A DNA stretch of 50,512 nucleotides, from the NCBI RefSeq assembly GCF_006345805.1, contig NW_021834245.1, positions 1 through 50,512 of the forward strand, in the 5' to 3' direction. Within the stretch, counting starts at the first letter, position 1; each line of letters begins with the position of its first letter. A program made the translations under genes and the position numbers. The notes beneath the pieces are model-generated. The model saw nothing but the letters and a program-made list of their open reading frames with translations. It was not told the DNA's origin and made no database searches. Below are positions 21,731 to 34,740 of the stretch, one piece after another. This stretch comes from Octopus sinensis. Taxonomy: Eukaryota.

Positions 21731-21826
21731 TACCTCATCGAAATTTCAAAGCTCTGAGATACTGTTTGGTTGATTCAGAAATGCGAATAAAGGAGCATTA
21801 CATTTGATGGAATAATCTAAGGGTTC

Positions 21827-22802
21827 AAGGCAGCGAGCTGGCAGAAACGTTAGTATGCGGGGCAAAACGCATAGCCATATTTCGTCTGCCGTTACGTTCT
21901 GAGTTCAAATTCCGCCGACGTCGACTTTGCCTTTCATCCTTTCGGGGGCGATTAAATAAGTACCAGTAAACACACTGGGAGTCGATATAATTGACTTAAT
22001 CCGTTTGTCTGTCCTTATTTGTCCCCTCTGTGTGTAGCCCCTTGTGGGTAGTAAAGAAATAGATATTTCATCTGCCATTACGTTCTGAGTTCAAATTCCG
22101 CCGACGTCGACTTTGTCTTTCATCCTTTCGGGGTCGATTAAATAAGTACCAGTAAACGCACTGGTGTCGATGTAATCGACTTAATCCGTGTGTCTGTCCT
22201 TGTTTGTCCCCTCTGCGTGTAGCCCCTTGTGGGCAGTAAGGAAATAGGTATTTCATCTGCCATTACGTTCTGAGTTCAAATTCTGCCGACGTCGACTTTG
22301 TCTTTCGTCCTTTCAGGGTCGATTAAATAAGTACCAGTAAACGCACTGGGGTCGATATAATCGACTTAATCCGTTTGTCTGTCCTTGTTTGTCCCCTCTG
22401 TCTGTAGCCCCTTGTGGGCAGTAAAGAAATAGGTATTTCATCTGCCATTACGTTCTGAGTTCAAATTCCACCGACATCGACTTTGCCTTTCATCCTTTCG
22501 GGGTCGATTAAATAAGTACCAGTTACGCACTGGGGTCGATATAATCGACTTAATCCGTTTGTCTGTCCTTGTTTGTCCCCTCTGTGTGTAGCCCCTTGTG
22601 GGCAGTAAAGAAATAGGTATTTCATCTGCCATTACGTTCTGAGTTCAAATTCCACCGACATCGACTTTGCCTTTCATCCTTTCGGGGTCGATTAAATAAG
22701 TACCAGTTACGCACTGGTGTCGATATAATTGATTTAATCCATTTGACTGTCCTTGTTTGTCCCCTCTGTGTGTAGCCCCTTGTGGGCAGTAAAGAAATAA
22801 GA
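21827..22802 (+). mobile_element. SINE family C: one head plus five tandem 184-186 bp bodies
   Basis: Units start at TATTTC 21878, 22064, 22249, 22434 and 22618. They are flanked by the direct repeat GAATAATCT(A/G)AGGG(T/C)TCAAGG at 21810-21830 and 22801-22821. Confidence 0.92.
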
Positions 22803-23251
22803 ATAATCTGAGGGCTCAAGGGCAGAACATAGAGAGTTCCTTTTATCTTGAATTTGTTTTTACTCAGAGTATCTGTTGCGTAGGCGAATTACTTTCGCTC
22901 AATTGTACTTTACATGATGTAAACCGCACTCAGTGTTTGTTGCAGCATACATAATCAGATCAAGTGGATTAACAACAACAATAACAAAGTTGACATTCAA
23001 AGAAGTGAACCATCAACATGACTAATAACAGTAAAATTCGGCAAAGCAACAGGCCTTTATGTGGTCACTTAGCTTGCTAGAAATAGCAGCCAGATACCCC
23101 AGAAATGCCACTCTATTGTCTTTAGTAAAATACACATTGGATAACGTGGTCCTGGATTCCTAACATATGGGATAAAGACAAGATGGTCGTGGCTGGAATA
23201 CCTTTGATCACAGTTCAGTTTGGACTTATATTTGAAGATATATAAAGATAT

Positions 23252-30308: not shown

Positions 30309-31520
30309 AGGCATGGCTGTGTGGTTAAGGAGGCTTGCATTGCAAAGCCATGCCGTTTCAGTTTCAATCCTACTGCATGGCACATTGGGCAAGTGTCTTC
30401 TACTATATATTTCATTACTACCCGCAAGGGGCTAAATACGGAGGGGACAAACAAGGACAGACAAACGGATTATGTCGATTATATCATCCCCAGTGCACAA
30501 CTGGTACTTAATTTATCAACCCCGAAAGGATGAAAGGCAAAGTCAACCTCAGCGGAATTTGAACTCAGAATGTAGCAGCAGACGAAATACCTATTTCTTT
30601 ACTACCCACAAGGGGCTAAACACAGAGGGGACAAACAAAGATAGACAAGCGGATTAAGTCGATTACATCGACCCCAGTGCACAACTGGTACTTATTATTT
30701 AATCGACCCTGAAAGGATGAAAGGCAAAGTCGACCTCGGCGGAATTTGAACTCAGAACGTAGTGGCAGACGAAATACCTATTTCTTTACTACTCACAAGG
30801 GGCTAAACACAGAGGGGACAAACAAGGACAGACAAACGGATTAAGACGATTACATCGACCCCAGTGCACAACTGGTACTTAATTTATCAACCCTGAAAGG
30901 ATGAAAGGCAAAGTCGACCTCGGCGGAATTTGATCCCAGAACGTAACGGCTGACGAAATACGGCTATGCATTTCACCCGGCATGCTAACGTTTCTGCCAG
31001 CTCGTCGCCTATGTATCTTCTACTATAGCCCCAGGGTCAATCAACACCTCGTGAGTAAATTTGCTAGTTGGAAATTGTACAGAAACCCATCACATGCTTG
31101 TGTGCACGCATGTGCATGTGTGCGTGTGTGTGCATGCACGTGTGTGCATACTTGCACTCATGTGTTTGTGTCTGTGTTTATTACCCTACCCCCCCTCCAG
31201 TGCTTGACAATCTATGTTGGTTTGTTTATGTCCTCATAACTTAGTTGGGTAGCAAAAGACATGGATGGAATAAGCACCAGGCTTGAAAAAACCTAACAAA
31301 TTTTCTAGGGTAGATTTGTTGGCGTTAGGAAGGGCATCCAGCTGTAGAAACTCTGCCAGATCAGATTGGAGTCTGGTTTGCCAGGCCTCAGTCAAATCGT
31401 CCAACCCATGCTAGCATGGAAAGCAGACGTTAAATGATGATGACGATGATGATGATAATGATGATGAAAACCCTTCAAGGCAGTGCCCAACCACAGTCCC
31501 ATGACTGAAGCAAATAAAAT
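30309..31520 (+). mobile_element. SINE family A hosting a family C trimer and an RTE tail (31318-31467)
   Basis: Head 30309-30407, resumes at 31013, final tail AAGGCAGTGCCC...ATGACTGAA at 31478-31520. Confidence 0.8.
30408..31010 (-). mobile_element. SINE family C: one head plus three tandem bodies
   Basis: Junctions GAAATAC|CTATTTC at 30590/30591 and 30777/30778. Flanking duplication GT(G/A)TCTTCTACTATA at 30393-30407 and 31013-31027. Confidence 0.92.
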
Positions 31521-34469: not shown

Positions 34470-34740
34470 CTGTTGTACATACTGGCATGGGTTGGATGGT
34501 TTGACCAGGGTTGGCAAAGCTGGAAGGCTGCATCAGACTCCAGTCCAATTCGCAATGATTTTCTATGGTTGGATGCCCTTCCTAACACCAACCACTCCAA
34601 GAGTGTAATGGGTGCTTTTACATGCCACTGGCAATGGTGCCACGACTGCGATTTTGCTCGGCTTGATGGGTCTTCTTCTCAAGCACAACATAATGCCAAA
34701 GATCTCAGCTACTTTGCCTCTGTGAGGCCCAACATTCGAA
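34470..34740 (-). mobile_element. RTE 3' fragment
   Basis: Matches 4150-4320 and 4710-4800 of the RTE. Confidence 0.8.

Follow-up and report, generated by a model that had tools for sequence, protein, structure and literature searches.

How does a dispersed SINE come to stand in tandem, with a single head ahead of three bodies? The question is raised by a locus in the window, by which we mean the whole 50,512-nt stretch of Octopus sinensis contig NW_021834245.1 that was analysed. At 30408–31009 on the (−) strand, one 47-nt head is followed by three bodies of 184–187 nt, for which TRF gave a period of 187 and 3.0 copies, and the array lies inside another abundant SINE. It is enclosed by a single target site duplication (TSD) of 15 bp with 1 mismatch (GTGTCTTCTACTATA at 30393–30407, GTATCTTCTACTATA at 31013–31027), with a 3-nt filler at 31010–31012, likely untemplated, between TSD and head. 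Both flanks align by BLAST, in one register, to other window copies of the host SINE. A preliminary description had proposed a head and three bodies on this strand, with their own TSD, inside a SINE that it called family A, and the coordinates, TRF, TSD and flanks agree with it. The parts of the locus, and two further copies of the same family in the window, are as follows.

30307 (approximate) to 30392, (+) strand: 5′ part of the host SINE (family A), split by the insertion; from BLAST against other window copies.
30393–30407, no strand: TSD copy downstream of the trimer; TATAGTAGAAGACAC on the element's strand.
30408–30591, (−) strand: trimer body 3, the terminal unit, ending GAAATA; the most diverged of the three.
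30592–30778, (−) strand: trimer body 2; GAAATA/GGTATTTC joint to body 3 between 30592 and 30591.
30779–30962, (−) strand: trimer body 1; joint to body 2 between 30779 and 30778.
30963–31009, (−) strand: trimer head, single, 47 nt, unrepeated in the array.
31010–31012, (−) strand: filler ATA, 3 nt, between TSD and head.
31013–31027, no strand: TSD copy upstream of the head, 1 mismatch to its partner, with GGC before it.
31028 to 31284 (approximate), (+) strand: 3′ part of the host SINE; from BLAST against other window copies.
21809–22819, (+) strand: independent pentamer of the same family, head from 21829 and bodies to 22799; its five units form one supported clade.
40120–40350, (−) strand: monomer of the same family, with its own TSD and the natural 3′ end GAAATA.

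The trimer head contains TGGCAGAAACGTTAG, which we take to be A-box-like, and body 1 contains GATCAAATTC, presumably a B-box-like sequence; neither ARAGORN nor Rfam identified a tRNA gene or a tRNA-like head. The pentamer has a 20 bp TSD of its own (21809–21828 and 22800–22819). It had been suggested from diagnostic bases that the trimer is not a copy of the pentamer locus, and we found this to be correct: G94 and T95 are present in all three trimer units and in no pentamer unit, units of the two arrays differ at 16–29 per 184 sites, and the 1-kb flanks have in common only pieces of dispersed repeats, with no collinear flank. The non-collinear flanks and differing units rule out a segmental duplicate. 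To look for copy-number polymorphism, contigs, and reads from 4 of 24 listed runs, were compared with the trimer locus, the small shares in runs X18–X20 being left out; all signal came from other family copies, with no record spanning the array. Elsewhere in the window are a body-only copy that starts just upstream of the GGTATTTC site, within an 84-bp two-copy repeat (41789–41972, (−) strand), and minisatellites of period 43 (8778–9461), 42 (34704–35112) and 17 (37568–37718).

Monomers of the family are 231 nt long and end in GAAATA, with the TSD beginning at the next base; the joint between units is therefore GAAATA/GGTATTTC. The preliminary description had recognised a common joint here, and its position shifts by one base. 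Because GGTATTTC is the sequence after the head in every full copy, the joint consists of the monomer's 3′ end and a site in the element's own head, and internal array units end at GAAATA just as monomers do. Genome-wide, the exact joint occurs 28,163 times as against 0 for a reversed control (one pattern), and thus it does not reflect chance. GGTATTTC is next after 31,490 of 104,717 exact 3′ ends (~30%, locally expanded units included), and a second joint, AGAAAYGTTAG, which corresponds to head position 15, accounts for 1,758 exact occurrences among the same 104,717 ends. When 80 exact-head elements of the trimer's body type were sampled, 47 had one body, 25 had two and 8 had three. Both the genome-wide share and these 33 multimers in 80 support the earlier view that multimer formation recurs in this subfamily, and the trimer is an ordinary member of the chain class. 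TSDs were found in 42 of 59 usable monomers (median 13–16 bp), compared with 0 in shuffled pairings. Arrays built on the head-position-15 joint (L037, L068, L072 and L144) have a period of about 217 and belong to a subfamily with C at body position 172 (C172), some of them mixing both joint types, and at L173 an extra GGGAAATA stands between units at both joints.

For the comparisons below, 291 loci were fetched. Parsing of 279 of them and the window, 917 kb in all, gave 533 chains, and removal of duplicates and of chains cut by an edge left 468. Pattern matches served to choose the loci, in most cases those that came first in the list for the largest contigs. The sample contains two body types with their first 118 nt in common: B, the type of the trimer, and C, which is older and has a different tail. 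Since 60 loci combining B and C were picked by start type, start-type frequencies in this sample differ from those of the genome and were taken from whole-genome counts instead.

If the joint is the family's ordinary insertion site, monomers should reveal it. For B monomers with T at body position 172 (T172), the next two bases are GG in 30 of 55; target position 3 is T in 50 of the 55, and position 4 is A in 47. The corresponding count of GG for C172 monomers is 0 of 16, and 8 of these 16 have AGA there instead (T172 versus C172, p=3e-5). The left TSD copy also begins GGT in 17 of 19, so this motif predates insertion. Within arrays, the unit preceding the GGTATTTC site is T172 in 257 of 269 cases and the unit preceding the head-position-15 AGAAACG site is C172 in 16 of 17. 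Monomer sites and array joints thus match by subfamily, and each subfamily's ordinary insertion motif is present in its own family's head. In L056 and L058, T172 monomers have entered other family copies at antisense-strand GGTA sites.

The three bases upstream of T172 insertions are biased as well (R in 37/43, R in 31/43, Y in 36/43). Both head sites agree with RRY (TAGC/GGTA and TGGC/AGAA), as do both window arrays, and the GGC ahead of the trimer's upstream TSD copy fits this bias. Because a tail cannot read bases upstream of the insertion, this pattern points to a borrowed LINE nuclease that would prefer RRY ahead of the insertion point. The downstream match may come from an RNA tail or from two subfamily-specific partner enzymes; among 16 TSD pairs whose copies differ, read by eye, about 6 favour a templated tail and 4 the opposite, which weakly suggests that the RNA itself carries the tail. 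We found no partner LINE: 3 of 278 tails lacked the SINE core, the sole long candidate among them being a single-copy insert inside a unit, and no LINE end was present at the GGTATTTC site in the loci examined. That candidate (L275/L290) was rejected as a partner. At L290 it is approximately 800 bp of single-copy sequence, with a stop-free stretch, at about 330–1120 on the (−) strand, in the unit-1 tail of a dimer with head, B body and C body (H-B-C), with no Pfam match, and to our eye it resembles a LINE C-terminus. The genome has 99,926 exact family sites. From motif and copy number, the predicted rate at which the family hits itself is 0.5–31%, depending on motif length and the assumed number of sites. 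Since a short motif reaches 30% only under generous assumptions, part of the observed 30% is probably due to longer pairing, to a genuine specificity of the nuclease or to local expansion.

Copies caught inside older relatives are visible directly. The order old head, short start of a body, new head has 67 exact pattern matches genome-wide, and we examined 30 such loci, 24 of them independent. A duplicated stretch with at least two non-consensus bases was present in 11 of the 24; in 7 of these 11 most of the non-consensus bases recur downstream, in 6 cases ahead of an old family-C body. This downstream recurrence of variants identifies these duplicated stretches as TSDs that arose when an already resident copy was hit. 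At the GGTATTTC site, elements have therefore inserted into older genomic copies, a route overlooked by the either/or of the preliminary description (rolling circle or local expansion against template jumping), and it is the best supported one. Old heads at these loci are off at 8–17 of 32 sites, with new heads 89–100% identical to the consensus, which fits a target that would have been too diverged to anneal, both heads thus being kept. At L163–L169 and L188–L189 (G000 C1, about 194.2 and 195.4 Mb; C7, about 15.3 Mb) 3–6 nearly identical heads precede a body, each with 16–17 nt of body start plus AA, in a period of 65–66, and the same head-to-head joint recurs at unlinked loci.

Seamless arrays have a polarity. 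B is followed by C 119 times, and C by another body 0 times. All 42 arrays made only of B bodies open with a T172 unit, and 26 of them close with a C172 unit. The last unit is also more diverged than the first at non-CpG sites (0.074 versus 0.040, n=63, p=1e-5; in a second set 0.041 versus 0.021, n=42, p=5e-4). The outer TSDs are old: mismatches number 31/688 in arrays (17/344 and 14/344) compared with 10/621 in monomers, and perfect TSDs of at least 12 bp bound 7 of 46 B+C arrays compared with 24 of 59 monomers. Pooled, TSD age agrees with the age of the terminal unit (p=0.61) and departs from that of unit 1 (p=0.017); for B+C arrays alone the test is not significant (p=0.085). B boxes are decayed in terminal C units (30/441) as in free C copies (19/301), and more so than in unit 1 (14/441; p=0.019), and so there is no sign that terminal C units had to be transcribed.

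Non-consensus bases common to unit 1 and the terminal C unit exceed permutation at positions 13–60 and not at 61–90, and C-type starts are twofold commoner in H-B-C dimers (75/654 versus 718/11,310), the remaining 579 of 654 having a B-type start. Head non-CpG divergence is 0.066 in seamless B+C arrays, 0.049 in B monomers and 0.118 in C monomers (C-type allele T19 in the head, 12/63 versus 11/19), and head divergence correlates significantly with neither unit 1 nor the terminal unit. The surviving head of an array is thus mostly young and tracks unit 1 rather than the old unit. As array heads are mostly young, self-insertion needs near-complete head replacement. Either the cDNA anneals over the full length of the old head and takes its place, or many arrays result from a jump between RNA templates.

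Together, these results suggest, with a probability of roughly 0.6, that multimers arise by sequential self-targeted insertion with a homology-guided 5′ join, the longer chains also expanding locally. Dispersed copies settle at GGTA-type sites, and because the head itself contains such a site, older copies would become targets. A new copy would likely enter an older one by target-primed reverse transcription, a GGUA(U) RNA tail or a subfamily-specific partner enzyme setting the downstream match, and its 5′ end would likely be joined through pairing to the old head, so that the product has a single head and one body more. In most cases the cDNA head would replace the old one, and long chains would gain further units through local duplication or conversion.

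Polarity and mixed subfamilies fit self-insertion and template jumping alike. In the latter, a single event would suffice: once the reverse transcriptase has reached the internal site, the end of the cDNA anneals to a GGUAU tail, on a second RNA or on the one just copied, copying continues, and the last template gives the head. Jumping readily accommodates young heads linked to unit 1, and the identical tandem heads at L163–L169 and L188–L189 would be repeated copying or slippage. However, the TSDs of two-head copies prove entry into genomic DNA at the GGTATTTC site, the TSDs of arrays are older, the B boxes of terminal C units have decayed, and 5′ variants are common to unit 1 and the terminal unit. 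What tips the balance towards self-insertion is the age of the TSDs, the decay of the B boxes and the existence of two-head copies; we consider template jumping an unlikely source of the arrays, if one to be taken seriously. A history in which a few multimeric master genes were transcribed through and their whole RNA retrotransposed finds encouragement in the trimer's sense strand, which is free of any run of four T, and in L179, where a head and three bodies lie within one TSD in an old C copy. Such masters should have left clustered copies, yet terminal C units are unclustered, with nearest neighbours at least 7.9% different, so they are not copies of a few masters; TSD age, moreover, tracks the terminal unit. 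We give this history little credence. Still less credible is rolling-circle copying of a circular RNA made by a ribozyme. Retrozymes carry a self-cleaving ribozyme in each tandem unit, and tandem units with a fixed boundary and a nearly palindromic joint are what such copying might leave. Nevertheless, no Rfam family reached its gathering score in the window, and nothing meaningful appeared on the trimer at E up to 10; the units thus gave no match to an Rfam ribozyme, though a divergent one might escape this search. Moreover, a circle yields neither a head nor mixed subfamilies. Pairing of the tail with the internal site, visible by eye, is absent from the predicted monomer fold, which is unremarkable (z=-1.6) and leaves tail and joint site unpaired.

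The remaining alternative is that unequal crossover, slippage or conversion expanded one unit or a seed dimer locally to make the trimer and most multimers. In its favour, all three trimer units carry G94, an allele that only 5 of 280 elements possess, and units 1 and 2, with 7 differing sites, are nearer to each other than 99.9% of outside units are. In a tree of 136 units from 36 arrays (bootstrap values rough) the pentamer units form one clade (99/88), and several long arrays are likewise clades, and adjacent pairs fall in the closest 5% in 34 of 74 cases in arrays of at least four bodies and in 6 of 32 in trimers. On the other hand, dimer pairs are that close in only 5 of 32 cases, the trimer units form no supported clade in this tree, and local expansion can explain neither B+C chimeras nor the constancy of the joint nor its match to the target motif of monomers. 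As the general origin we hold it to be improbable, more so than template jumping. The tree, which the preliminary description had proposed as the deciding test, required 76 label changes (minimum 35, shuffled mean 118): clustering by locus is the tendency of long arrays and mostly not that of short ones, so that both predicted patterns occur. Arrays of 7–10 bodies at L133, L152 and L027–L030 are largely homogenised and are candidates for nascent satellites.

For the trimer itself, units 1, 2 and 3 carry 6, 5 and 13 changes from their inferred common form, an inequality of age that is not significant (p=0.09). On the favoured reading its joint type comes from the self-insertion route, while its three units may derive from one local source: self-insertion would have created the joint, and local expansion or conversion may then have shaped the array.

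Octopus tRNA-derived SINEs, likely the same taxon and kind of element, were reportedly described by Ohshima and Okada in 1994. In the main texts searched, largely from open-access journals, we found no account of octopus SINE multimers or self-targeting, and the excerpts of PMC13282606, PMC4758252, PMC9115989 and PMC3747384 contain nothing on the trimer's SINE family. By the definition excerpted from SINEBase, a SINE is short, interspersed, present in at least 100 copies and has a head at least 60% identical to a tRNA (PMC3531059); the octopus element has the size and copy number (a 231-nt monomer and 104,717 exact 3′ ends), and the variable-length TSDs of a SINE mobilised by a LINE. Its architecture has precedents in a blood clam, in squamates and in the SINEU elements of crocodilians; what is added here is the evidence on scale and polarity. 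In another mollusc, the blood clam S. broughtonii, about 3% of SINEs are multimers of the form TSD1-(SINE)n-TSD1, with one TSD pair, a full tRNA head on the first unit only and later units truncated at the head; the octopus arrays likewise have one TSD pair, and a full head on their first unit only. The available text tentatively ascribes them to unequal recombination (PMC11481361). Whereas the internal units there are 3′-truncated, here they keep full 3′ ends, ~30% of ends are involved and the joint is the insertion motif.

The closest logic is that of crocodilian SINEU-3, which, with Tx1-Mar LINEs, has a preferred site in an unrelated Mariner repeat and forms tandems by sequential insertion, according to the passages available (PMC4494074). 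The preferred site in a repeat and sequential insertion are features of both, but SINEU-3 keeps a TSD between whole copies, whereas the octopus element has its own head as target, a seamless join and most copies off-target. For SINEU-type elements the same passages require that a single target repeat flank over 20% of copies; here GGTATTTC follows 31,490 of 104,717 ends, locally expanded units included. R2 is autonomous, targets 28S rDNA and makes one insertion per site, and for its 5′ junctions the excerpted account postulates the same two outcomes that we consider (PMC3774820). SINE-derived satellites of squamates resemble our arrays in that tandem units are shorter than the SINE and longer arrays more uniform; in the excerpts, they are attributed to unequal recombination, same-locus insertion is only mentioned, and their location is likely subtelomeric (PMC10702118). 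Unlike them, the octopus arrays are dispersed, are mostly of 2–3 units and have a TSD each. Such satellites (sSat) have at least four fairly uniform middle units; the trimer has three units in all, and few sampled loci reach 7–10.

How interspersed SINEs turn tandem has been explained in published accounts, as far as the excerpts go, by unequal recombination without a test. In octopus the element's own insertion motif predicts the joint, and with tens of thousands of loci available, intermediates, polarity and ages lend themselves to counting. We tentatively propose, as a possibility rather than the expected outcome, a feedback loop: a copy that landed in its own head would have gained a matching read-through tail, by which its progeny home to kin, a fresh promoter replacing the resident head and one body being added per event. 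Operating in two subfamilies at two head sites, this loop could account for dispersed arrays in the tens of thousands, from which SINE-derived satellites would start and in which one could read when each subfamily was active relative to the other. If head replacement is true, it would represent homology-guided retro-conversion at genome scale, would give old copies renewed promoters and would bias both the counting and the dating of repeats in the octopus genome.
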